From sequence record PZ445488.1: a stretch of 64,000 bases of DNA. One strand, written 5' to 3'. Each line of letters begins with the position of its first letter. Position 1 is the stretch's first letter. Positions 2,598 through 45,705 of this stretch are shown piece by piece. The position numbers and the translations under genes are program-made. Below the pieces are notes generated by a model. It was not told the DNA's origin and ran no database searches. It was given only the letters and a program-made list of their open reading frames with translations. The stretch comes from a phage.

Positions 2598-4270
2598 TGA
2601 TGAGTGATATCGCCACCGATTGGACGATAGGAAACACCAGTTTCTTTATCAGTTAGTACCCATTTACCAGGATTTTTTGTAATCAGAGTAGCCGTTACAG
2701 GTTCTGCTACGTCATAACTAATAGAGCCGTCTTGAAGTACACGGCCCATGTTATGTAATTGCTTAGTCAGAAGTTCCATACCTTTATAATATGCGGCCAC
2801 CGCTTTAAGTGGATTATTCTTGAAATAACCACCTAATGCAATCCAGATAATTGCTACTGCCAAATGATGATACTCATTAAACGAACTCATCTTTCCATAT
2901 TTGTAAACTAATGGATTGATGTTAATAGTCACATTACAAGTTGTTTCATCAATAGTAAACTGACCCCAGGTCGGATTAGCATTGAATTCATCATAACCTG
3001 AAACAGCATAAAGCACTTTAGCTTCATCGTACAATTTTGGCCCGTAAATCTTGGTTTCACCAAAATATCCACGAGGGTCGATAAACTTGACTTCACCATT
3101 ATCAGTAATCATAGTATTACTGAAGTTCGGGTCGCCGTGAATAACAGAGTACTGTCCCTGAGAACGGTTATGATAACGAATAAGATGTTCTAAAGCTTGT
3201 TTCAACATTGGCTTCAGACGTCCAATCTTAGTGTAGTTCACGTGTGTGATTTTACCAAATGAATCAATCAATGGCTGAATGCTTTCACAACGATCAATAA
3301 CTTTCGTATAGAACTCTTTAGTGAAATCACGGCGAACAGTTTCAGGACTTACAAAATAAGTGTCTGTGCTGAATTTCAGTGCATCTAAAATTGCATCAAC
3401 AATTTGTGGACGAGCAAGACTTGATTTGGATTTAATATATTCAAATGCCGGCTTACCTTTAATGCGTTCCATAATAAAGTGGCCGCCAGGATGATAACTT
3501 ACAATCCGTGGAACTGAATCTGATTTAACTTTCTTATACCAATTGACTTCATCTTTTTGAAGTGCAACGCCCTGTTCTGTTAAAGCAATCTTTGTTACCG
3601 TTTCTTCGCCAATTTCAACTGCATTAAAACTACGATTAAGTTCACGAACTTCATGAGCTTTTTCAAGTTTAGGCATATCACCTAAATCAATTAGATTCAT
3701 AAGCTCTGATTTATTGAATGCACTACCGTAAAGGAATTCTACGAAATCACGTCCTTTGCAGTATTCGTGAATTTCCTCATCAGTAGAACCCATGTAGAAT
3801 TCCCAGTCTTTGAACTGATAAATTCCTACAACATTACCACCTGTTGAACCTACGTTAGTGATATTTTCACCATCGAAATTATATCGACATTCATCACCCT
3901 TAACATAGATTGCGTTAACATTCCAAGACCATGAACCAAAGTCAGGAATAATATCACACCAGTTAACAATTACGTTATGGCCATCTAAATCTTTGTATAA
4001 TTTAGCAAGAGCATAAGCAGAACCATACGCTTCATCAACTGTACGAATAGTCACATTGAACCCTTCTTGCTCGCAATAAGCTCGAACAGTTTCAGCAAAT
4101 TTTGAATGAACTACTACAATAATTTCATCTGCGCCAAGGTCAGAATAAATTGTATACAAATTGCTCAGAATAGTGTCTTGTTTATAGTTAACAAGCACCT
4201 TAGGAATATGGTGCGTTATTGGATACAAACGAGTTGCCAGTCCAGCACCAAGAATAACAGCTTTTTTCAT
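2582..4270 (-). CDS. bifunctional sugar-1-phosphate nucleotidyltransferase (N-term, RmlA/LicC/MurU-like) and anomeric sugar kinase (C-term, APH/choline-kinase fold)
   Basis: 562 aa; N-term KAVILGAGLATRLYPIT (GxGTRLxPxT pyrophosphorylase motif); C-term VIHGDPNFSNTMI...FIDPRGYFG (APH-type catalytic loop and DFG-like motif); ATG at 4270 with GAGGA RBS. Confidence 0.7.
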   Translation of the reverse strand: MKKAVILGAGLATRLYPITHHIPKVLVNYKQDTILSNLYTIYSDLGADEIIVVVHSKFAETVRAYCEQEGFNVTIRTVDEAYGSAYALAKLYKDLDGHNVIVNWCDIIPDFGSWSWNVNAIYVKGDECRYNFDGENITNVGSTGGNVVGIYQFKDWEFYMGSTDEEIHEYCKGRDFVEFLYGSAFNKSELMNLIDLGDMPKLEKAHEVRELNRSFNAVEIGEETVTKIALTEQGVALQKDEVNWYKKVKSDSVPRIVSYHPGGHFIMERIKGKPAFEYIKSKSSLARPQIVDAILDALKFSTDTYFVSPETVRRDFTKEFYTKVIDRCESIQPLIDSFGKITHVNYTKIGRLKPMLKQALEHLIRYHNRSQGQYSVIHGDPNFSNTMITDNGEVKFIDPRGYFGETKIYGPKLYDEAKVLYAVSGYDEFNANPTWGQFTIDETTCNVTININPLVYKYGKMSSFNEYHHLAVAIIWIALGGYFKNNPLKAVAAYYKGMELLTKQLHNMGRVLQDGSISYDVAEPVTATLITKNPGKWVLTDKETGVSYRPIGGDITHQWERI

Positions 4271-4311
4271 GTTGTGGTCCTCATTGGTAAGTAGGTGTAT
4301 TGTACACTATT

Positions 4312-4455
4312 CTAGTTAAAGCATTCATACTTTGCTTGTAGTCCAATCATAATCCATCCGATTATAAGAGTCGGAATCATTACTGGAGCCGTTAAGCTCC
4401 AGTAGATAGTCATGACAAGCATCAATAGTAAAAGTCCTATTGTTATTGCTTTCAT
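4312..4455 (-). CDS. small hydrophobic protein (47 aa, 2 predicted TM segments)
   Basis: Hand-translated MKAITIGLLLMLVMTIYWSLTAPVMIPTLIIGWIMIGLQAKYECFN; its ATG overlaps the stop of the SIS gene (ATGA); below the ORF-track size cutoff. Confidence 0.35.
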   Translation of the reverse strand: MKAITIGLLLLMLVMTIYWSLTAPVMIPTLIIGWIMIGLQAKYECFN

Positions 4456-5087
4456 TGTTCGCCTCGTAACATGGCACCTAGTGCACCACCAGGGTGGAAC
4501 TTAAGGAAGTCATTAGAGGTAAATCCGCGTTCAGACGAAAGGTTGATAGCGAACGTATCGATAAGCGCTAACAACAATGTAGTGGACATTGTAGGAGCCA
4601 GAGAATTCTCATCAACCTCTACCGCGATACCGGTACAGAATGTATAATCAAAAAGAGCTTCGTATTCTTGTGGAATGTCCGGGTTACAATGCAACAGAAT
4701 CTGTTTGACATTTGGACGAATCATTTTAAGATGCTTAGCCACGCCTATCATTTCTTCAGTCTTACCAGAACGACTAATATGAATCAACACATCATTAGGC
4801 GCAATGAATCCTGCATCACCGTGAGAATAATGCCCAGTGTTCAAGTACATACTCGGGATACCGAGCGAAGCAAATGTCTCAGAAGCTTTAGTTGCAATAT
4901 TAGCATTCTTACCAACACCTGTAATAATTACTCGGCTTTCATAATTACTAAGTCCAGGGCGTCGAAGAGTTTCTAGAATAGCATTATAACGAGCAGGGTT
5001 TTGACTAATTACTTTGGCCATAGCGGCCAAAGAAGAAGCTTGTTTTATGATTGCGTCAATAGCGATAGTAATAGGAGTAGTTTTCAT
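4452..5087 (-). CDS. SIS-domain sugar-phosphate isomerase, KdsD/GutQ-type (arabinose-5-phosphate isomerase-like), no CBS domains
   Basis: 211 aa; VIITGVGKNANIATKASETFASLGIPS...HISRSGKTEE...LAPTMSTTLLLALIDTF...FHPGGALG aligns block-by-block with the KdsD SIS domain; ATG at 5087. Confidence 0.7.
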   Translation of the reverse strand: MKTTPITIAIDAIIKQASSLAAMAKVISQNPARYNAILETLRRPGLSNYESRVIITGVGKNANIATKASETFASLGIPSMYLNTGHYSHGDAGFIAPNDVLIHISRSGKTEEMIGVAKHLKMIRPNVKQILLHCNPDIPQEYEALFDYTFCTGIAVEVDENSLAPTMSTTLLLALIDTFAINLSSERGFTSNDFLKFHPGGALGAMLRGEQ

Positions 5088-5127
5088 ATTTCTCTCATTT
5101 AATTAGTTTACCGTCCATGACATTATA

Positions 5128-7839
5128 TCAAAAATCGAACATATCGAACAGAGATGCTTTCTTCTCGTAATCGAGTTTCGCTGCTGATGTGAATCCTTCA
5201 AGTGGTTTAATAAATGTCTTCTCAAGGAGAACAGTGTAGTCCATCCAATGAAGTACGTCGTCTTTAATTAAATCTGTGATTTCAGTACCAGAAGGCCATG
5301 CGATACATTTATCACCGAATGGGTTTCCATCACGTAAAGGCAGAACGTATACCTTTTCGCCTTCTACAACTTGTGGAGCATCAATATTACCTTTGATAGC
5401 TCTGTTATATGTCAGAATTCCACGAATATGGAACGGGCATTTAGGACCAGGGAATCCACCAACGTCATATTTAGCAATGTTATTCGCAGAAGATACCGAC
5501 GCGATGCTAATATAATTCAATTGACGGAATTCTTTTTCAAACTCTTTAAAATATTCTTGTAATGATTCTTCACCTTCTTGAAGCATACGACGAATACATT
5601 CTTTAAGAGCTTTCTGTACTGCTTTAGGGGTCGAAGATTTCTGTGTTTCGAGACCCATGATTTTGAGTTTAGGCTCAGCGTATCTGGTTCCTTCCATATC
5701 CCACACGTTTAATGCATAACGTTTCTTACCAGTCCAGAATCCACCAATACCTTTAGAACCGAGTGGAGGACCAGCAATAGCTTCTCGGTCCATGAACATC
5801 AAATGTTGCTTATTATTCATGTATTCACACATTTCACGGAAACCTCTATCAATAGCCGGTTCCATACGTTCACGAGCAAACTTATCTAAGAAGTCTACCC
5901 AATGGTTGGTATCACGGAATTTAGATTCACCAACCTTATCGATAATTTTATCAGCAGATACGTAAATAGAGTCTGTATCACCATAAAGAACGAAAGCTTC
6001 ACCTTCTGTACCACAAACTTCATTCAGATATTCATTAACTTTACGTTCAATCCACTGTAAAGCCATTTGCCCGAATGTTGTGATTGCAGTAGCATTACGC
6101 AAATCATAATAACGGAACCAAACGTTACCAAGTGCACCATAAAGCGAGTTGATGAGCAATTTACGGTTAATTTGTGCAGTCATACCTGCAACTTCAGTAC
6201 GTTGAGCTCTAAACAACATTTCATTAAGAGATTTAGCAGACAACTTTTTAATCTTTTCTTTAATCTCGTCAGTGAAGTCGAAACGATAATCAACATCTAA
6301 TGGTTCGTCAACAGAAAGATTAGGATTATGTAACGCCTCTTTAATTATTTCACCATTACGTTGAGCCGCAAGCATATAACCTTTATGTTCTTTACGTTGA
6401 TTAAAGACCTTAGTGATTTCAGTTGGAACTACACCATCACGGTCTTTATAATACATCATGCCGTTAGGAGAGCAACTGTACACATCTGAAGGACGTTCAG
6501 CGATTGCGTTAATATAATCATGCAATGGAGCTACTTTAAACGTTCCTGCTATTGTTTCTGGGCTAATATTCACTTGGCGAATAATACTTGGATACAGAGA
6601 TGTAAGGTCGAAACTCATTACATATTTGTATCGATTTGGAATAGGTTCCTTAACAAAAGCGCCAGGATAAGGTTGAACCGGGTGAGAACGACCTTGTGGA
6701 ATCACCTTGTTCTGCTCTTTAAGGCTATTAAAAATAATAGCATCCCATGTTTTAATTGGGCTGAACACAGATTGAATCTGTATCTTAGCATAATAACCCA
6801 TGTCCAAACTCAAGTTGATGAACTGGCGCTTAGCATCAATTTGCAATACACGATACACGTCGATAATGTTATAAGAAATATATCGTTGGTGATTGCTTTC
6901 ACGAAGCTTAGAAATAGGGCCGTCATATTTCAGTTTACCGACATTCAATTCAAATTCTGAAATGTAATCCAGAGAATACGACGGTTGGTTTGTGAAAGAG
7001 AATTTTTTGTAAAGGTCAATGTAATCAAGAACAGAAATACCGAACAATGTAATGATTTCACGAGAACCATACATGTTTTCGATAACTTTAACACGAGTTT
7101 TACGATGTGGTGATAAACGTTTCGCAGTAGATTCGCCAAAAATATTCTTGATTCGGTTATACACATATGGAATATCAAATGACTCAACGTTCCATCCGGT
7201 TAAAATGACAGGAGTTTTCTGTTGCCAGAAGTTGAGATATTCCATCAACAATTCTTTTTCGTTATCGAACGGCATATAAATGATTTTATCGATAATTTCG
7301 GATGGAACTTCATCACCACCTTGTTCTTGAAGCTTAGCCGCAATTTCGATAGACCATTCTTCTACATTACCATATGGAGAATTCAAAAGGTCGAATACGT
7401 AGAACCTGTCGTCAATTGAGTCATAATGGGTGATAGCATCAATCGGATGTTTTGCTTGTGACGGCTCAGGGAACCCATCCGGAGATGTTACTTCGATATC
7501 GAAGTTAGCCACACGAATTTTTGTATGGTCGTATTTGATTTCATAGTTATAAGTGTCAGACAAATACGACAATTTGAAATCGTCCATACCTAATGCTTCA
7601 AGACCGATATCTTCCATGCGTTTAATCCATTGGGAGGCATCACGCATATTAGCGAACAACTTACGAGTACACGGCTTACCGTAGATATCGAAATATTTCG
7701 TAGCCTGACTTTCTGGACAATGAGCAAACAATGATGGTTTATATTCTACTTCACGAGTACGTTCACGGCCATTAGAATCGATGTAACGTTCAAAAATTGA
7801 ATCACCAATCTGTTCAACCGTTAAGTAAAATTCTTTCAT
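5128..7839 (-). CDS. 43: DNA polymerase gp43 (family B, with 3'-5' exonuclease)
   Basis: 903 aa; N-terminus MKEFYLTVEQIGDSIFERYIDSNGRE and motifs YGDTDS and KILLNSLYG-like match the T4/RB69 polymerase (RB69 gp43 is 903 aa, from memory); ATG at 7839. Confidence 0.97.
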   Translation of the reverse strand: MKEFYLTVEQIGDSIFERYIDSNGRERTREVEYKPSLFAHCPESQATKYFDIYGKPCTRKLFANMRDASQWIKRMEDIGLEALGMDDFKLSYLSDTYNYEIKYDHTKIRVANFDIEVTSPDGFPEPSQAKHPIDAITHYDSIDDRFYVFDLLNSPYGNVEEWSIEIAAKLQEQGGDEVPSEIIDKIIYMPFDNEKELLMEYLNFWQQKTPVILTGWNVESFDIPYVYNRIKNIFGESTAKRLSPHRKTRVKVIENMYGSREIITLFGISVLDYIDLYKKFSFTNQPSYSLDYISEFELNVGKLKYDGPISKLRESNHQRYISYNIIDVYRVLQIDAKRQFINLSLDMGYYAKIQIQSVFSPIKTWDAIIFNSLKEQNKVIPQGRSHPVQPYPGAFVKEPIPNRYKYVMSFDLTSLYPSIIRQVNISPETIAGTFKVAPLHDYINAIAERPSDVYSCSPNGMMYYKDRDGVVPTEITKVFNQRKEHKGYMLAAQRNGEIIKEALHNPNLSVDEPLDVDYRFDFTDEIKEKIKKLSAKSLNEMLFRAQRTEVAGMTAQINRKLLINSLYGALGNVWFRYYDLRNATAITTFGQMALQWIERKVNEYLNEVCGTEGEAFVLYGDTDSIYVSADKIIDKVGESKFRDTNHWVDFLDKFARERMEPAIDRGFREMCEYMNNKQHLMFMDREAIAGPPLGSKGIGGFWTGKKRYALNVWDMEGTRYAEPKLKIMGLETQKSSTPKAVQKALKECIRRMLQEGEESLQEYFKEFEKEFRQLNYISIASVSSANNIAKYDVGGFPGPKCPFHIRGILTYNRAIKGNIDAPQVVEGEKVYVLPLRDGNPFGDKCIAWPSGTEITDLIKDDVLHWMDYTVLLEKTFIKPLEGFTSAAKLDYEKKASLFDMFDF

Positions 7840-33083: not shown

Positions 33084-33660
33084 ACAACCCTGTCAAATCA
33101 TTCCAATGCTTCCGGCATAATGACACGTATCTATCGGTATCACCAATTTCAATTTGACTGCCATCTGTAATTGGAAGTCCGTCTTCCGTGACTCTAGCTA
33201 CCATTGTGGCCTTTTTACCGCAATGACAGACACCTTTAAGTTCAACAAGCTTATCGGCAATAGCCATTAATGCTTGAGAACCTTCAAATAGATTACCTTT
33301 AAAATCTGTTCGTAGTCCATATGCCATTACTGGCACATTGTATACGTCAACAATACGACTAAGTTGATACACCTTTTCAGTAGTTAAGAACTGAGCTTCG
33401 TCAACAAATACACAGTGAATATCCTTTTGTGCTGCAGCCCATTTATAGAATTCAAAGATATCCATGTCTTTTGTAATTATATTGGCATCCTGACGAATAC
33501 CAATACGAGAGACTATTTCACCTTTTGAATCACGAGTATCAATAGCCGGTTTAAGAACTAATACACCCATGCCACGTTCTTTATAGTTATGTGCGGCAGT
33601 AAGTAATGAAGCAGACTTACCAGCGTTCATAGCGGCATAGGTAAAAATTAAACTAGCCAT
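33079..33660 (-). CDS. tk: thymidine kinase
   Basis: 193 aa; P-loop AAMNAGKS and zinc-ribbon cysteines (CHCGKKA...CRKHW). Confidence 0.93.
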   Translation of the reverse strand: MASLIFTYAAMNAGKSASLLTAAHNYKERGMGVLVLKPAIDTRDSKGEIVSRIGIRQDANIITKDMDIFEFYKWAAAQKDIHCVFVDEAQFLTTEKVYQLSRIVDVYNVPVMAYGLRTDFKGNLFEGSQALMAIADKLVELKGVCHCGKKATMVARVTEDGLPITDGSQIEIGDTDRYVSLCRKHWNDLTGLL

Positions 33661-33850
33661 AAGAGTCCTTAGTTAAATTTTCTAAATATGTTTCTAAATC
33701 ATTTTCAGCTTTATTGATAGATTTTACTAATTCGTAATATGTTTCGGCATCTCCATATTCAGAAGATATTTCAAAAGACAAATCCTTTTCTAAACTAATA
33801 ATTTCACCAACTAAAAATAATATTTCGTTCTTTTGTTCGCGAGTAATCAT
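33653..33850 (-). CDS. small acidic protein (65 aa)
   Basis: ORF track; paralog-like to the adjacent 63-aa ORF. Confidence 0.45.
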   Translation of the reverse strand: MITREQKNEILFLVGEIISLEKDLSFEISSEYGDAETYYELVKSINKAENDLETYLENLTKDSYG

Positions 33851-34038
33851 AAGGAATTTATATAATTAATAAGTTCTTGTTCTTTATTATCGAATTCTTT
33901 AGAAAGTTCTTCGTACTCGTTTTCACTAAAAGGACCGCATTCATTACAAACTTTTTCCAATTCACTATTTTTATCCATAACTTCGTGGATAAGAGAAAAG
34001 AGTTTGTCTTTTTGTTCTTTACTTAAACTCATAACCAT
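33847..34038 (-). CDS. small acidic protein (63 aa)
   Basis: ORF track. Confidence 0.45.
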   Translation of the reverse strand: MVMSLSKEQKDKLFSLIHEVMDKNSELEKVCNECGPFSENEYEELSKEFDNKEQELINYINSL

Positions 34039-42307: not shown

Positions 42308-43264
42308 TTATTTGAAAGGTTTTACCATATGAAAGTTTTGTTTGAAACGCTTGACGTAATCGTCGTGTCCTAAGCTTTGGTACATACTTACTACTTTGCT
42401 ATAATTTTCCCAAGCGAACTCACGGAACCATCCTGATGTGATTGATGTACAGACCTTTTCAAGGGCCATCATAAAACTATCACGTGGATGGATTTCAAAG
42501 TTATTAGGAATCTGAGAACGTTCTAACGCTAGTACACATGATTCTTCGTATACGCCGGCCAATTTGACCATTTCTGGTAATGATTCGAACTTCTCGCGTG
42601 AGGTCATGACTTCAGAACCATCTTTCATATAAAATGTATACGCTGGACGGTCTGTTAGTGCAATGGCTTCATGAATAGTATCATGGTCATATGTATAGAT
42701 GTCATCTTTAAAGAACGCACTTTTAGAAGTGTCAAGAACTGGGTGAGCATAATTCAAGGTTTCTTTCTGGCGTTTCAGCATAATTTCAGTAAGTTCATCG
42801 TTCAGTGTAACACCTTTACCACGAAGATACTGAATATGGTTCATAGTCTTTAAAAAGAATGGATTATTTTTCTTGAAACGATGAGACATCTTAATTGCAA
42901 GACATATCTCAGGAGTTGCCCAGTAAAACCCGTTCAAACGGTCTTTAGTCAAATTTTTCTTGGCGTATTTTAAAAGGTCATAAGAAGACGTGAAATCTTC
43001 AGGAGTGAGTTCACCGACTAGTTCGCGAACGTTAGTGATAGCCGGAACGATGTATGCTTCAAAATGAGTTTCGCGTCCATTATGGAAGCATTTGAAAACT
43101 TGGACATCAGGGTTATCTTGGTGAACATATACACCCATCATTTGATTTTTGAATGCATTCCAAGAACCTTGGTCCGCAATAAAGTCCCAATCACTATTTT
43201 TAATAGCGCTAGAATCAATAAGACCGTGATAGTGAAGTGCACGAGAACCAATAACTAACATCAT
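42308..43264 (-). CDS. hypothetical protein (318 aa)
   Basis: ORF track; weak nucleotidyltransferase-like GS...DWD pattern, not called. Confidence 0.55.
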   Translation of the reverse strand: MMLVIGSRALHYHGLIDSSAIKNSDWDFIADQGSWNAFKNQMMGVYVHQDNPDVQVFKCFHNGRETHFEAYIVPAITNVRELVGELTPEDFTSSYDLLKYAKKNLTKDRLNGFYWATPEICLAIKMSHRFKKNNPFFLKTMNHIQYLRGKGVTLNDELTEIMLKRQKETLNYAHPVLDTSKSAFFKDDIYTYDHDTIHEAIALTDRPAYTFYMKDGSEVMTSREKFESLPEMVKLAGVYEESCVLALERSQIPNNFEIHPRDSFMMALEKVCTSITSGWFREFAWENYSKVVSMYQSLGHDDYVKRFKQNFHMVKPFK

Positions 43265-43292
43265 AATATTTTCCTCGGATTAATTCATTAAC

Positions 43293-43532
43293 TTAAATTT
43301 CGCGACATGCGATATTATATTCATCCCAGAGGTCGTCATGTGAAGCCTCTACCAATGGAACGATTGTGCCGTTTATGTCTTCATTATAAGGGCAAATTGT
43401 ACAGTGCGCATCTTCGAATCGGATGTCTTTGTGTTCAGATTTTTTATAACGCATATCGAATATCTTTGCAAACTTTTCACGAGTAATAGTTTTAGCAACT
43501 ACTTCGGTTCCGATACTTTCGTAATAAATCAT
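43293..43532 (-). CDS. hypothetical Cys-containing protein
   Basis: ORF track frame from ATG 43532 (GGAG 7 nt upstream); an in-frame ATG at 43544 lacks an RBS. Confidence 0.45.
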   Translation of the reverse strand: MIYYESIGTEVVAKTITREKFAKIFDMRYKKSEHKDIRFEDAHCTICPYNEDINGTIVPLVEASHDDLWDEYNIACREI

Positions 43533-43561
43533 TGTGGACTCCATTTGTTTTGATAGGACTA

Positions 43562-43590
43562 CTATAACATAGCCCTATCTTGTTGTAAAC
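43562..43590 (-). promoter_or_regulatory. early promoter (GTTTAC, 17 bp, TTATAG) within GATAGG-CTA palindrome
   Basis: Minus strand reads GTTTACaacaagatagggctatgTTATAGtagtcctatc. Confidence 0.45.
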
Positions 43591-43594
43591 TGTT

Positions 43595-43792
43595 TTAGCA
43601 AGAATAACTAGATGATACCCAGCCTTGAACAGTGATACTATTGTGGGATAATGAGATCGCGTCCTGGAGATTCAGACCTGCGTTATCTTCAATCCACAAT
43701 GTAACTTCTTCACGCTCTTCGGTTGCAATCTGGAACAGGTTTTCCAGGGCAGCTACTGCCGTACGTACAGCACAATCTAATTCACGAGACAT
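43595..43792 (-). CDS. small protein, member of a tandem paralog family (C-terminus WVSSSYSC)
   Basis: ORF track; shares its C-terminal motif with the next two ORFs. Confidence 0.4.
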   Translation of the reverse strand: MSRELDCAVRTAVAALENLFQIATEEREEVTLWIEDNAGLNLQDAISLSHNSITVQGWVSSSYSC

Positions 43793-43801
43793 ATGATTTC
43801 C

Positions 43802-44074
43802 TTAACAAGTGTGAGAAGATGCAACCCAACCACCATCTTCAAGGCTCAGGTTGTAGTCGTATTGGTAAACGTCAGCCCATTCAGCCTGGCCGTTTTTTGT
43901 ACAACGTTCAAGATCGGCTTTAAGATGTCCGGGTGAATGATAGGTTCCACCCATGCCATAAGCTGGATACAAGTTGAATGTTGTGTTTTGTTTATCAGCA
44001 ATTTCTTTGGCAGCCTCAATAGCTGCATAGATTTTTGCTACAGCTTCAGCCAGTTCGGTTTGTTCTTTAGACAT
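43802..44074 (-). CDS. small protein, tandem paralog (C-terminus WVASSHTC)
   Basis: ORF track. Confidence 0.45.
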   Translation of the reverse strand: MSKEQTELAEAVAKIYAAIEAAKEIADKQNTTFNLYPAYGMGGTYHSPGHLKADLERCTKNGQAEWADVYQYDYNLSLEDGGWVASSHTC

Positions 44075-44083
44075 AATGATTCC

Positions 44084-44389
44084 TTAGCACAACGCAGAAG
44101 ACGAAACCCAAGCACCTTCAGTAATAACGTATCCATTACCTTCACGCTTAACATCGCCGCCATTATTTTCAATTTCATCTTTCATCCACTGGGATACGAT
44201 TTCACCCTTAGGATAATAAGTACGACCGCTACCATAATCACCTACAGAAAATGATACGGCATATTGGTCTGCGATCTTTGTTGCTTCTTCTTCGATACGT
44301 TCAGCTTGATTCAGAAGTTTATAAATTGCATCTGAAGCGGATTTGGCATCATTAAACTCTGGTACTTTAATTTCAATAATCTTACTCAT
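44084..44389 (-). CDS. small protein, tandem paralog (C-terminus WVSSSALC)
   Basis: ORF track. Confidence 0.45.
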   Translation of the reverse strand: MSKIIEIKVPEFNDAKSASDAIYKLLNQAERIEEEATKIADQYAVSFSVGDYGSGRTYYPKGEIVSQWMKDEIENNGGDVKREGNGYVITEGAWVSSSALC

Positions 44390-44745
44390 TTTCTACATTC
44401 CTTAATAAAGTTTTCGATTGTTTCATTTTCACGTCTAGCTAGGAGTTCATTATAACTAATCATTTGAGAAGCGTAAACCTTTTTATTTTTCTTGTTGTGG
44501 TTTATAAAATCGTAGTAAAAATAGACTACAGTAAAAAATGATGCGATGGATGCAAAGGCTTGGGTATACCGTAAGTCCTGCCATTGGTCTGTGAATCCAC
44601 CAGTGTTCCCTATAAATCCTAACACAACGCCGTCAATAAGAAATCCAACTAATCCAAAGGCAAATCCCATGCCAATACTCATAATAAAAATTAGAATGTT
44701 CTCACCAAGAGAAGGCCATACGGTTAAGAGTTGAGGCTTTTGCAT
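44386..44745 (-). CDS. membrane protein (119 aa)
   Basis: ORF track; hydrophobic core. Confidence 0.45.
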   Translation of the reverse strand: MQKPQLLTVWPSLGENILIFIMSIGMGFAFGLVGFLIDGVVLGFIGNTGGFTDQWQDLRYTQAFASIASFFTVVYFYYDFINHNKKNKKVYASQMISYNELLARRENETIENFIKECRK

Positions 44746-45149
44746 CTTATTTCCTTAACGAATTCCATAGCTTCTTCATATTCATACTTTTTAACAGCTT
44801 CATCATACTGAGCTTGGGCTTTTGCGCACTGAACTTTCCATTCTCTTAATCGGGCTCTGTGATGACGTCCTTGGTACCAATATCCCATCCAGTTAATAGG
44901 CATTAATAAAAACGGTACAATAAGTGGTGCGACGAACATTAATGAAAATGCTGCATCGGACGATATAACTTCACTAGAATCTAAAACGGCTCCTATAATC
45001 ATAAAGATTAAAAATGCTAAAGCTAAAATAGGGCCAAATAGTACTTCATTTGGGATTAATTTACGCTTGTATTCATACGCCCAGGGCTTACTTGGCATGT
45101 ACAGGGTTGGCTTTGACATATTCTCTACATTCCATAATAAATTGCTCAA
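44724..45149 (-). CDS. membrane protein (start uncertain)
   Basis: ORF track; overlaps the upstream ORF, so an internal Met (about 45098-45119) is likely the true start. Confidence 0.45.
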   Translation of the reverse strand: MSNLLWNVENMSKPTLYMPSKPWAYEYKRKLIPNEVLFGPILALAFLIFMIIGAVLDSSEVISSDAAFSLMFVAPLIVPFLLMPINWMGYWYQGRHHRARLREWKVQCAKAQAQYDEAVKKYEYEEAMEFVKEIRCKSLNS

Positions 45150-45705
45150 GGATTAAATTGTTAGTGAAATTAGGACTAACAACCATAGTTTCATAAAGCG
45201 CATCAATAGAACTTAAAGCATCAACTCTTTTAAGCAAAGGCTTGCCTTCATACATAGTTTCAGAATCGACGATTAACGTAAAGTAGTATTTTTTATTATC
45301 GACTAGAACTTCTGTATCGATATAAAACATATTAGACCTCAGAAGCTTATCTCTAAAACCATAATAATCTTCAGAGCGTTCGCTGATATATTCCCATTCA
45401 GTGTTTAAACAACAAACAGACCACGTAGGAGCAACGAAATCAGTGAATCTAATATCATGGTCTGCAACTAGTTTAGCAATAGCTCCGATATCATTAATCA
45501 TGATACCTGGGGCTAATAAAGATTTTCGGTTATTTGCATATTCAGTTGTCTCATAAGAAGACGACCAGTACCATTTACGTCCAGTTGCAACATATCGTAA
45601 TGAATCAACTAAAGACGTAGGTGGATTTACCTTATTTCGGAACTCTTCGAACATTGAGTCAATATCATTATTTTGGTTTCGCATGTTAACTCCTTTATTA
45701 TCCAA
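45088..45705 (-). CDS. hypothetical protein (205 aa)
   Basis: ORF track. Confidence 0.5.
   Translation of the reverse strand: MDNKGVNMRNQNNDIDSMFEEFRNKVNPPTSLVDSLRYVATGRKWYWSSSYETTEYANNRKSLLAPGIMINDIGAIAKLVADHDIRFTDFVAPTWSVCCLNTEWEYISERSEDYYGFRDKLLRSNMFYIDTEVLVDNKKYYFTLIVDSETMYEGKPLLKRVDALSSIDALYETMVVSPNFTNNLILEQFIMECREYVKANPVHAK

Follow-up and report, generated by a model that had tools for sequence, protein, structure and literature searches.

Enzymes of the polymerase-beta nucleotidyltransferase type are recognized by a classical signature, which is made up of hG[GS], [DE]h[DE]h and a third carboxylate in a later strand. In several described systems an enzyme of this general kind stands together with a small partner, such as GlnD with PII, MntA with HepT and GlnE with glutamine synthetase, and in gene pairs of the AbiE/MenAT and MNT-HEPN type the usual order is the small gene upstream and the nucleotidyltransferase downstream. 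Tails that insert into a pocket of a partner characteristically consist of a short fixed C-terminal motif on variable bodies. Tandem precursor genes in variable copy number beside a conserved enzyme, on the other hand, are the classic arrangement in RiPP clusters. Among the hundreds of small genes without a known function in large virulent phages, very few come with a built-in hypothesis. The locus studied here offers a sharply defined and mutable feature, an invariant C-terminal tail, together with an enzyme-like neighbour. Its proteins are members of families in the PHROG and Pfam catalogues (phrog_899, phrog_4882, phrog_2141, DUF7277 and DUF7275), all of which are given as "unknown"; the catalogues split the small proteins into separate families and record neither the tail nor the linkage, and the source records name the genes either "hypothetical" or by inconsistent guesses. 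A search of the openly accessible literature found no mention of DUF7275, DUF7277, the PHROG ids or the ORF names of RB69. In the libraries searched, neither the tail motif nor the pairing appears to have been described, and neither does the unity of the small family across PHROGs.

The DNA analysed, hereafter the window, is a stretch of 64,000 nt of the phage record PZ445488.1. It belongs to an RB69-like T4-type phage (Mosigvirus); Escherichia phage CEV1 is 100% identical to it over 43000-45200, and many Mosigvirus genomes are ~98% identical. Shigella phage JK45 (MK962757.1) is classed as Tequatrovirus, yet it is ~98% identical to this Mosigvirus window across the region. Three genes for small acidic proteins follow one another on the minus strand, namely a 101-aa gene at 44084-44389 (RB69ORF139c type, phrog_899), a 90-aa gene at 43802-44074 (phrog_899) and a 65-aa gene at 43595-43792 (RB69ORF136c type, phrog_4882). 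The initial annotation had reported ORFs of these lengths with G-x-WV-x-SS-x-x-C ends, and all three are present exactly where it placed them, with the tails as given. The 101-aa protein consists of an N-terminal helix, a YGSGRTYYP loop and the tail GAWVSSSALC (ending EGAWVSSSALC), the 90-aa protein of a helix, a YGMGGTYH loop and the tail GGWVASSHTC (ending DGGWVASSHTC), and the 65-aa protein of a helix, one strand and the tail QGWVSSSYSC (ending VQGWVSSSYSC), without the Gly-rich loop. Over its six frames the window holds 966 stop-to-stop ORFs of 30 aa or more, of which these three alone have a W-x-x-S-[ST]-x-x-C end. Residue frequencies predict 0.004 such ORFs per window, and a single motif-ending ORF turned up in 200 shuffled windows taken together, which rules out a chance origin of the shared tails. 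The codons of the serine region read TCA TCT AGT, GCA TCT TCT and TCG TCT TCT, with TGC, TGT and TGC for the cysteine; since the tail codons differ among the three genes, the tails are not copies of one DNA repeat.

The three genes are only 9 nt apart, and an AAGGAA ribosome-binding site precedes each of them. That of the 90-aa gene (44080-44085) overlaps the stop codon of the 101-aa gene, that of the 65-aa gene (43798-43803) overlaps the stop codon of the 90-aa gene, and a 4-nt overlap joins the start of the 101-aa gene to the stop of the membrane-protein gene upstream of it. Compared with close relatives, pN/pS is 0-0.27 for the 101-aa gene, 0.05-0.12 for the 90-aa gene and 0-0.03 for the 65-aa gene, so that all three are under strong purifying selection, and related phage records carry a CDS annotation for each. 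Some of these records label the proteins as "tail completion protein", "Ig-like domain-containing protein" or "baseplate hub subunit". These labels were rejected, being inconsistent across records and having no profile support; they look like annotation-transfer errors. Directly upstream of the array, at 44386-45149 on the minus strand, two predicted membrane proteins of 119 and 141 aa are encoded (phrog_2330 and phrog_2604), whose genes are the positional equivalents of T4 e.3 and e.4, the first being the one that overlaps the 101-aa gene. The label "sulfurtransferase" in phage JK45 was considered as a clue to sulfur chemistry and discarded, for it belongs to the neighbouring 141-aa membrane protein and has no Pfam support. 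Between the 65-aa gene and the next, 83-aa gene there is a sigma-70-like promoter match on the minus strand (43561-43589, TTTACA-17-TATAGT with an upstream TG), which is a consensus match only, the count of such matches in the region being not above the shuffled expectation. Elsewhere in the window, a 70-aa ORF at 33653-33865 on the minus strand matches the small-family HMM weakly (E 0.002) and ends in LTKDSYG without the tail; it is probably not a family member, and its match may reflect only the helical N-terminal part.

Besides the tails, the initial annotation had taken the three proteins for paralogs. This holds well for the 90- and 101-aa proteins, which BLASTP aligns over 73 residues (E 9e-7) and profile-profile comparison by hhalign over 62 columns (97% probability, E 3.4e-11); an alignable core thus lies beyond the last residues, and for this pair the similarity is not the chance resemblance of terminal residues that the annotation had allowed for. 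Both proteins carry a second common motif, YG(M/S)G(G/R)TY(Y/H)(P), and both match phrog_899 (E 5e-19 for the 90-aa and 1e-22 for the 101-aa protein) as well as the family HMM built here (E 6e-24 and 3e-22, respectively). The relationship is weaker for the 65-aa protein, of which the helix and the tail alone align. It gave no match to the family HMM at E<=0.01; its N-terminal helix aligns with the family at an hhalign E of 0.0034, and its tail at E 2.8e-4, or with 85% probability and E 6e-6 against a profile of ~150 diverse members. In global mode the alignment runs collinearly through helix, strand and tail and skips the Gly-rich loop. With moderate confidence, and judging by sequence, we regard it as probably a shortened family member. 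The further description of the family as "expanded in place" turned out to be misleading, because orthologs of all three types recur in this order in other genera, for example as orf129/128/127 of phage JS98 and in Klebsiella and Enterobacter phages. The duplication is therefore old, and a recent expansion in place is ruled out.

A profile of the 90- and 101-aa types was searched against 1.84 billion representative proteins, and the motif, followed beyond the window, was found widely: the family comprises at least 565 representative clusters at E<=1e-3, of which 54 reach E<=1e-10. Nearly all matched clusters are 70-120 aa long, and the match runs through the last residue. Tail statistics were collected from 146 representatives, drawn from the best 150 listed of the 565 clusters. 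The terminal residue is Cys in 136 of them, and in 8 more the Cys is followed by a single residue. Counting back from the terminal Cys among the 136, Trp at -7 and Ser at -4 are found in 136/136 and Ser at -3 in 133/136; position -5 is S, A or P, and G is common at -8 and -9. The YGxGxxY motif is present in 127 of the 146. In the loci fetched for the linkage analysis described below, 224 of 237 members end in Cys, and the variants recovered there by HMM (WYSSSMQNC, WYTSSC, WDSSNC, WSSSYGTC, WYSSHC and WEGSSC) have as common denominator a W, then S-S, then the terminal Cys. What is more, 103 distinct tail DNAs use all six Ser codons at the invariant serines and both Cys codons, and this diversity indicates selection on the protein and not on a nucleic-acid element, ruling out a DNA-repeat origin of the tail across the family. 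The tail is thus under extreme constraint on otherwise divergent bodies, and the three small genes of the window are real, related members of a large family that is found in phages only.

Extra internal W-x-S-S-like units occur in 41 of the 146 representatives. In JS98 a fourth paralog of 74 aa, orf126 (positions 5010-5234 of the fetched JS98 locus), has WLNSSCYGEE as an internal unit besides its KIWYPSSC end; Enterobacter phage PG7 encodes a protein of this double-unit type (PG7_138, with the end WYTSSC), and so do metagenomic sources of family members such as ...EWNNSSCYGEDNYGWNSSSSNC. Such internal W-x-x-S-S-C-Y-G copies suggest that the free carboxylate of the tail may not be essential. 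Members of 139-172 aa, found at twelve of the fetched loci, have an extra N-terminal domain of ~80-100 aa before the helix, strand and tail. These extensions are of at least two unrelated types, with no known domain and no Pfam match among them, and they may give the best indication of the binding partners of the small proteins. The AF2 model of the 101-aa protein reaches a pLDDT of 89.7; it places the W in the last strand, and the terminal Cys is its least ordered residue. No solved structure matched the predicted fold.

Several of these features would also suit small proteins that act alone, as host-directed or anti-defence acidic oligomers whose terminal Cys residues come together in disulfides or at a metal ion or cluster, the nearby large gene being merely co-transcribed. 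The median net charge of the family is -8 at a length of 70-110 aa, the terminal Cys is the only one in 89 of the 146 representatives, so that a binding site would need oligomerization, and some members hold two W-x-x-S-S-C units. The genes lie in an accessory region and are absent from T4, and their copy number and body sequence vary widely, as in an arms race. At the same time, no sequence or fold similarity links them with known sponge or anti-defence proteins, and the genomic arrangement of the family bears directly on this explanation.

In every locus examined from other genera, a gene of ~300 aa lies just downstream of the small genes. Its counterpart in the window, which the initial annotation had not connected with the small genes, is a 318-aa gene at 42308-43264 on the minus strand, whose product matches DUF7277 (Pfam E 1e-27) and DUF7275 (E 3e-79); its start codon is 330 nt downstream of the stop codon of the 65-aa gene, and its pN/pS against close relatives is 0-0.06. 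The large protein of JS98 is 75% identical to it, that of Enterobacter phage PG7 65%, that of an unclassified 151-kb Pseudomonas phage 55%, and that of Aeromonas phage 25 48%. The pairing survives a changed genomic neighbourhood in the last two, with the genes of Aeromonas phage 25 located beside nrdD/49/nrdH. The linkage was then measured in both directions. For the forward test, 80 viral loci were fetched with the large protein alone as seed, and 75 of them hold 1-4 ORFs with the strict motif, all of which are upstream and on the same strand; downstream or on the opposite strand, no strict-motif ORF was found in any of the 80. With the family HMM and a looser tail definition, 1-6 upstream copies are found in 28/28 lineages (70% identity clusters). 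For the reverse test, 24 loci were seeded on DNA able to encode YGMGGTYY. Every one has a small-family member, and the tail is seen in the 22 with a complete ORF, the small ORF being cut by the locus end in the other two. The large gene follows downstream on the same strand in 17/17 loci with at least ~800 bp of downstream sequence (795 bp in the shortest). The small genes are thus almost always just upstream of one conserved, uncharacterized enzyme-like gene. That small proteins act independently of the large one leaves these 28/28 lineages and 17/17 reverse loci unexplained.

All-against-all clustering of the neighbourhood ORFs found no third gene family in more than 5 of the 28 lineages, and for this reason the module has two components. 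It is phage-exclusive and conserved in gene order. In the window an 83-aa ORF (43293-43544, minus strand; phrog_3723, RB69ORF135c type) stands between the array and the partner; it is confined to T4-like lineages (JS98 orf123) and is under purifying selection, and it does not belong to the conserved core. It carries a C-x-x-C (FEDAHCTICPY). The gap from the last small gene to the large gene is variable, with a median of ~340 nt and a maximum of 1.6 kb, and other genes may intervene, so that the linkage might reflect co-regulation and not contact. All in all, we hold a functional partnership between the small proteins and the large protein to be likely.

The neighbourhood also bears on a biosynthetic explanation, by which the large protein would convert the C-terminal residues of precursor proteins into a released small molecule or a modified peptide, in the manner of RiPP or scaffold-peptide pathways. 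Tandem genes of variable copy number with one invariant end and an adjoining conserved enzyme are what such a pathway would look like, and the invariant residues W, S, S and C are rich in chemistry. However, the bodies are confidently folded domains, by the model described above, and not disordered leaders; no recurrent protease, exporter or known RiPP enzyme family is found nearby, and just two families are conserved in the neighbourhood. We consider this explanation very unlikely. As to the wider surroundings, in six distant phages the large gene is near genes of NAD salvage or RNA repair, tRNA clusters or a Sir2-like gene. Aeromonas phage 25, roseophage DSS3_VP1 and Vibrio phage K412 have NAMPT there, and K412 has a ribose-phosphate pyrophosphokinase gene as well; the RNA-repair genes are those of RNA ligase 2 with a phosphoesterase, or of polynucleotide kinase. 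In the window itself nudE lies a few genes downstream of the large gene. These neighbours may be a coincidence of accessory regions, or may hint at nucleotide- or tRNA-related chemistry.

The 318-aa protein carries the signature hhhGSRA ... DWDF ... FEAY (G6, S7, D25, D27 and E69), which is a case of the three-part signature hhhGSxA / DxDhh / h[DE]x[DE]h of the large proteins. In every enzyme lineage hhhGSxA is followed by DxDhh ~15-18 residues on; G6, S7, D25 and D27 are invariant in 30/30 sequences, and the acidic E/D column at E69 of the window protein, located in a later strand, is conserved in the paired clade. Further conserved core residues are K125, H128, K139, H194, D195, H198, E240, E241, E248 and R249. 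Some records of Acinetobacter phages label the large protein "putative nucleotidyltransferase", and in Pfam one of the 30 sequences weakly matches DUF6036 (E 0.005), a nucleotidyltransferase of unknown function. Profile searches of PDB, Pfam, NCBIfam and PADLOC did not tie the large protein to a characterized family or structure: its full-length profile matched nothing in PDB at E<=10, the N-domain profile gave two chance-level matches to unrelated proteins there (an aminotransferase and an erythrocyte-binding antigen, E 1.6 and 6.4) and no nucleotidyltransferase, and the NCBIfam search gave no match. The single-sequence AF2 model of the 318-aa protein has an unusably low confidence (pLDDT 36). 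The protein is accordingly named here, from its motifs, a putative nucleotidyltransferase-like enzyme; that its DHDxIHE block and the His before it might be HD-like is a conjecture. Phage records with the large protein number 734 and cover Straboviridae, Phapecoctavirus, and Pseudomonas, Stenotrophomonas, Acinetobacter, Vibrio, Streptomyces and Gordonia phages.

The pairing is not universal. The most distant enzyme homologs, which share 26-34% identity and come from Gordonia phage Aphelion, Streptomyces phage Wakanda, roseophage DSS3_VP1 and Vibrio phage K412, have no tail-bearing neighbour. They keep G6, S7, D25, D27, K125, H128, K139, H194, D195, H198, E240, E241, E248 and R249, and they lack R148, Y172, H174, Y212, G237, L245, F264, I275, E282 and Y295, which are invariant in the paired clade; at position 272, Cys is found in 26/26 paired sequences and I, V and I in three of the four unpaired ones. 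A separate case is the T4-like contig IMGVR_UViG_650627040_000001, where the large gene is intact (positions 3576-4918 of the fetched locus) and the small genes are absent; the e.3-like membrane gene abuts the large gene, and the whole small-gene array appears to have been deleted. The intact core of the unpaired homologs and this contig imply that the enzyme does not strictly need the small genes, and the residue pattern suggests that it has a chemistry of its own, with an additional conserved surface in the paired clade. That the enzyme can exist without the small proteins agrees with small proteins acting on their own. Such a reading, however, leaves without explanation why a set of residues is conserved only in the paired enzyme clade, and on balance we think it unlikely.

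The same homologs, together with the gene order, recall an antitoxin-like explanation, by which the small proteins would be inhibitors or regulators whose tail plugs or masks the active site of a potentially toxic nucleotidyltransferase. Small genes upstream and a nucleotidyltransferase-like gene downstream is the order of the AbiE/MenAT and MNT-HEPN type pairs, and the core of the enzyme is independent of the small proteins. Against this, no toxin-antitoxin or defence model matched, and a copy number of 1-6, variable spacing and intervening genes are unlike tightly coupled pairs; the T4-like contig that lost its array, moreover, retains the large gene without any small gene. Cellular genomes also lack the module almost entirely. 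A search of 185,579 species genomes of bacteria and archaea matched 6 loci, all in metagenome bins, whose contigs are phage-sized in four cases (73-167 kb) and fragments of 2-3 kb in two, with pairing in 5/6; such near absence is hard to reconcile with an antitoxin role. In the T4 e-to-tRNA region neither component was found. We judge this explanation distinctly unlikely, and none of the rivals has membership support.

The best explanation overall, to which we assign a probability of roughly 0.5 on the strength of sequence comparison, is a two-component module in which the tail would be the element that the enzyme docks onto or modifies. The small folded, strongly acidic proteins would work together with the downstream DUF7277-DUF7275 protein, which we infer to be an enzyme with an N-terminal domain of the polymerase-beta nucleotidyltransferase type. 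Because an invariant motif at the free C-terminus of variable bodies typifies docking or modification, the exposed tail G-x-W-x-[S/A/P]-S-S-x-x-Cys-COOH may be recognized by the enzyme, either as a docking motif or as a modification site; recognition by the co-encoded enzyme in particular seems to us an even bet. The Ser hydroxyls and the thiol are invariant, which makes them plausible acceptors for nucleotidyl transfer, and a possible modification would be nucleotidylylation of the Ser-Ser hydroxyls or of the terminal Cys, although this specific chemistry is doubtful. Through their variable bodies, the 1-6 paralogs would differ in specificity or target, and the residues specific to the paired clade are candidates for the binding surface of the enzyme. 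The position in the e-to-tRNA accessory region and the absence from T4 suggest that these genes probably have accessory, host-directed functions with expression early in infection. Put most fully, and only tentatively, there could be a phage-exclusive system of tail modification or docking, in which the enzyme modifies, or is steered by, W-x-S-S-S-x-x-Cys-COOH on 1-6 interchangeable acidic effectors.

The pairing was seen throughout 28 independent lineages and in hundreds of sequenced phages, some of which are therapy candidates, and the module lends itself to direct testing in RB69-like coliphages by mass spectrometry and standard genetics. Modification or docking of the tail by the enzyme, if confirmed, would represent a new kind of phage protein chemistry and likely a new mechanism of host takeover or counter-defence, and would give a function to two Pfam DUFs and several PHROGs at once. 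In the case of a true tail-modification system, T4-like, rV5-like, Pseudomonas, Acinetobacter and jumbo phages would share a new class of effectors that are armed post-translationally.

It remains to set the module beside the systems already described. In T4, the 102-aa gene e.2 has the same place between e.3 and nudE and a similar size; its sequence is unrelated, and it has a hydrophobic C-terminus and no tail motif, so that e.2 is ruled out as a homolog of the small genes. Membership in AbiEii/MenT or MNT-HEPN (DUF1814/MNT) was not found, with no relevant match from PADLOC. The ThiS/MoaD type is characterized by a beta-grasp fold, a C-terminal Gly-Gly and an adjacent E1-like adenylating enzyme, and this combination was not found either. 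The small proteins have no sequence or fold similarity to a characterized member of Acb2, Tad1/2, Acr and similar groups. With RiPP clusters the module has in common 1-6 tandem small genes with one invariant segment beside a conserved enzyme, whereas its small proteins are folded domains of 65-170 aa and no known maturase, protease or transporter goes with them. The HbYX tails of proteasome activators, PDZ ligands and ssrA/ClpX tags, which are docking motifs dependent on a free carboxylate, likewise consist of a short motif at the extreme C-terminus, and the bodies that carry it are variable in the module. The motif itself is different, however, and no PDZ, ClpX-like or proteasome partner is encoded; by analogy, a pocket for the tail, if present, would lie in the DUF7275 protein or in a host protein.

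The likeness to GlnD/PII, MntA/HepT and GlnE/glutamine synthetase is that of an enzyme with G-S ... D-x-D ... acidic residues accompanied by a small partner, and it is an analogy only: the large protein has no detectable sequence relationship to GlnD, GlnE or MNT, and neither in sequence nor in fold do the small proteins resemble PII or HEPN. The module differs from these systems in being restricted to phages and in having its small partner in multiple copies. In systems of this type the acceptor is a Tyr in a loop, whereas the candidate in the module is the C-terminal tail, whose invariant Ser-Ser in an exposed segment would, by the same analogy, be chemically suitable acceptors.
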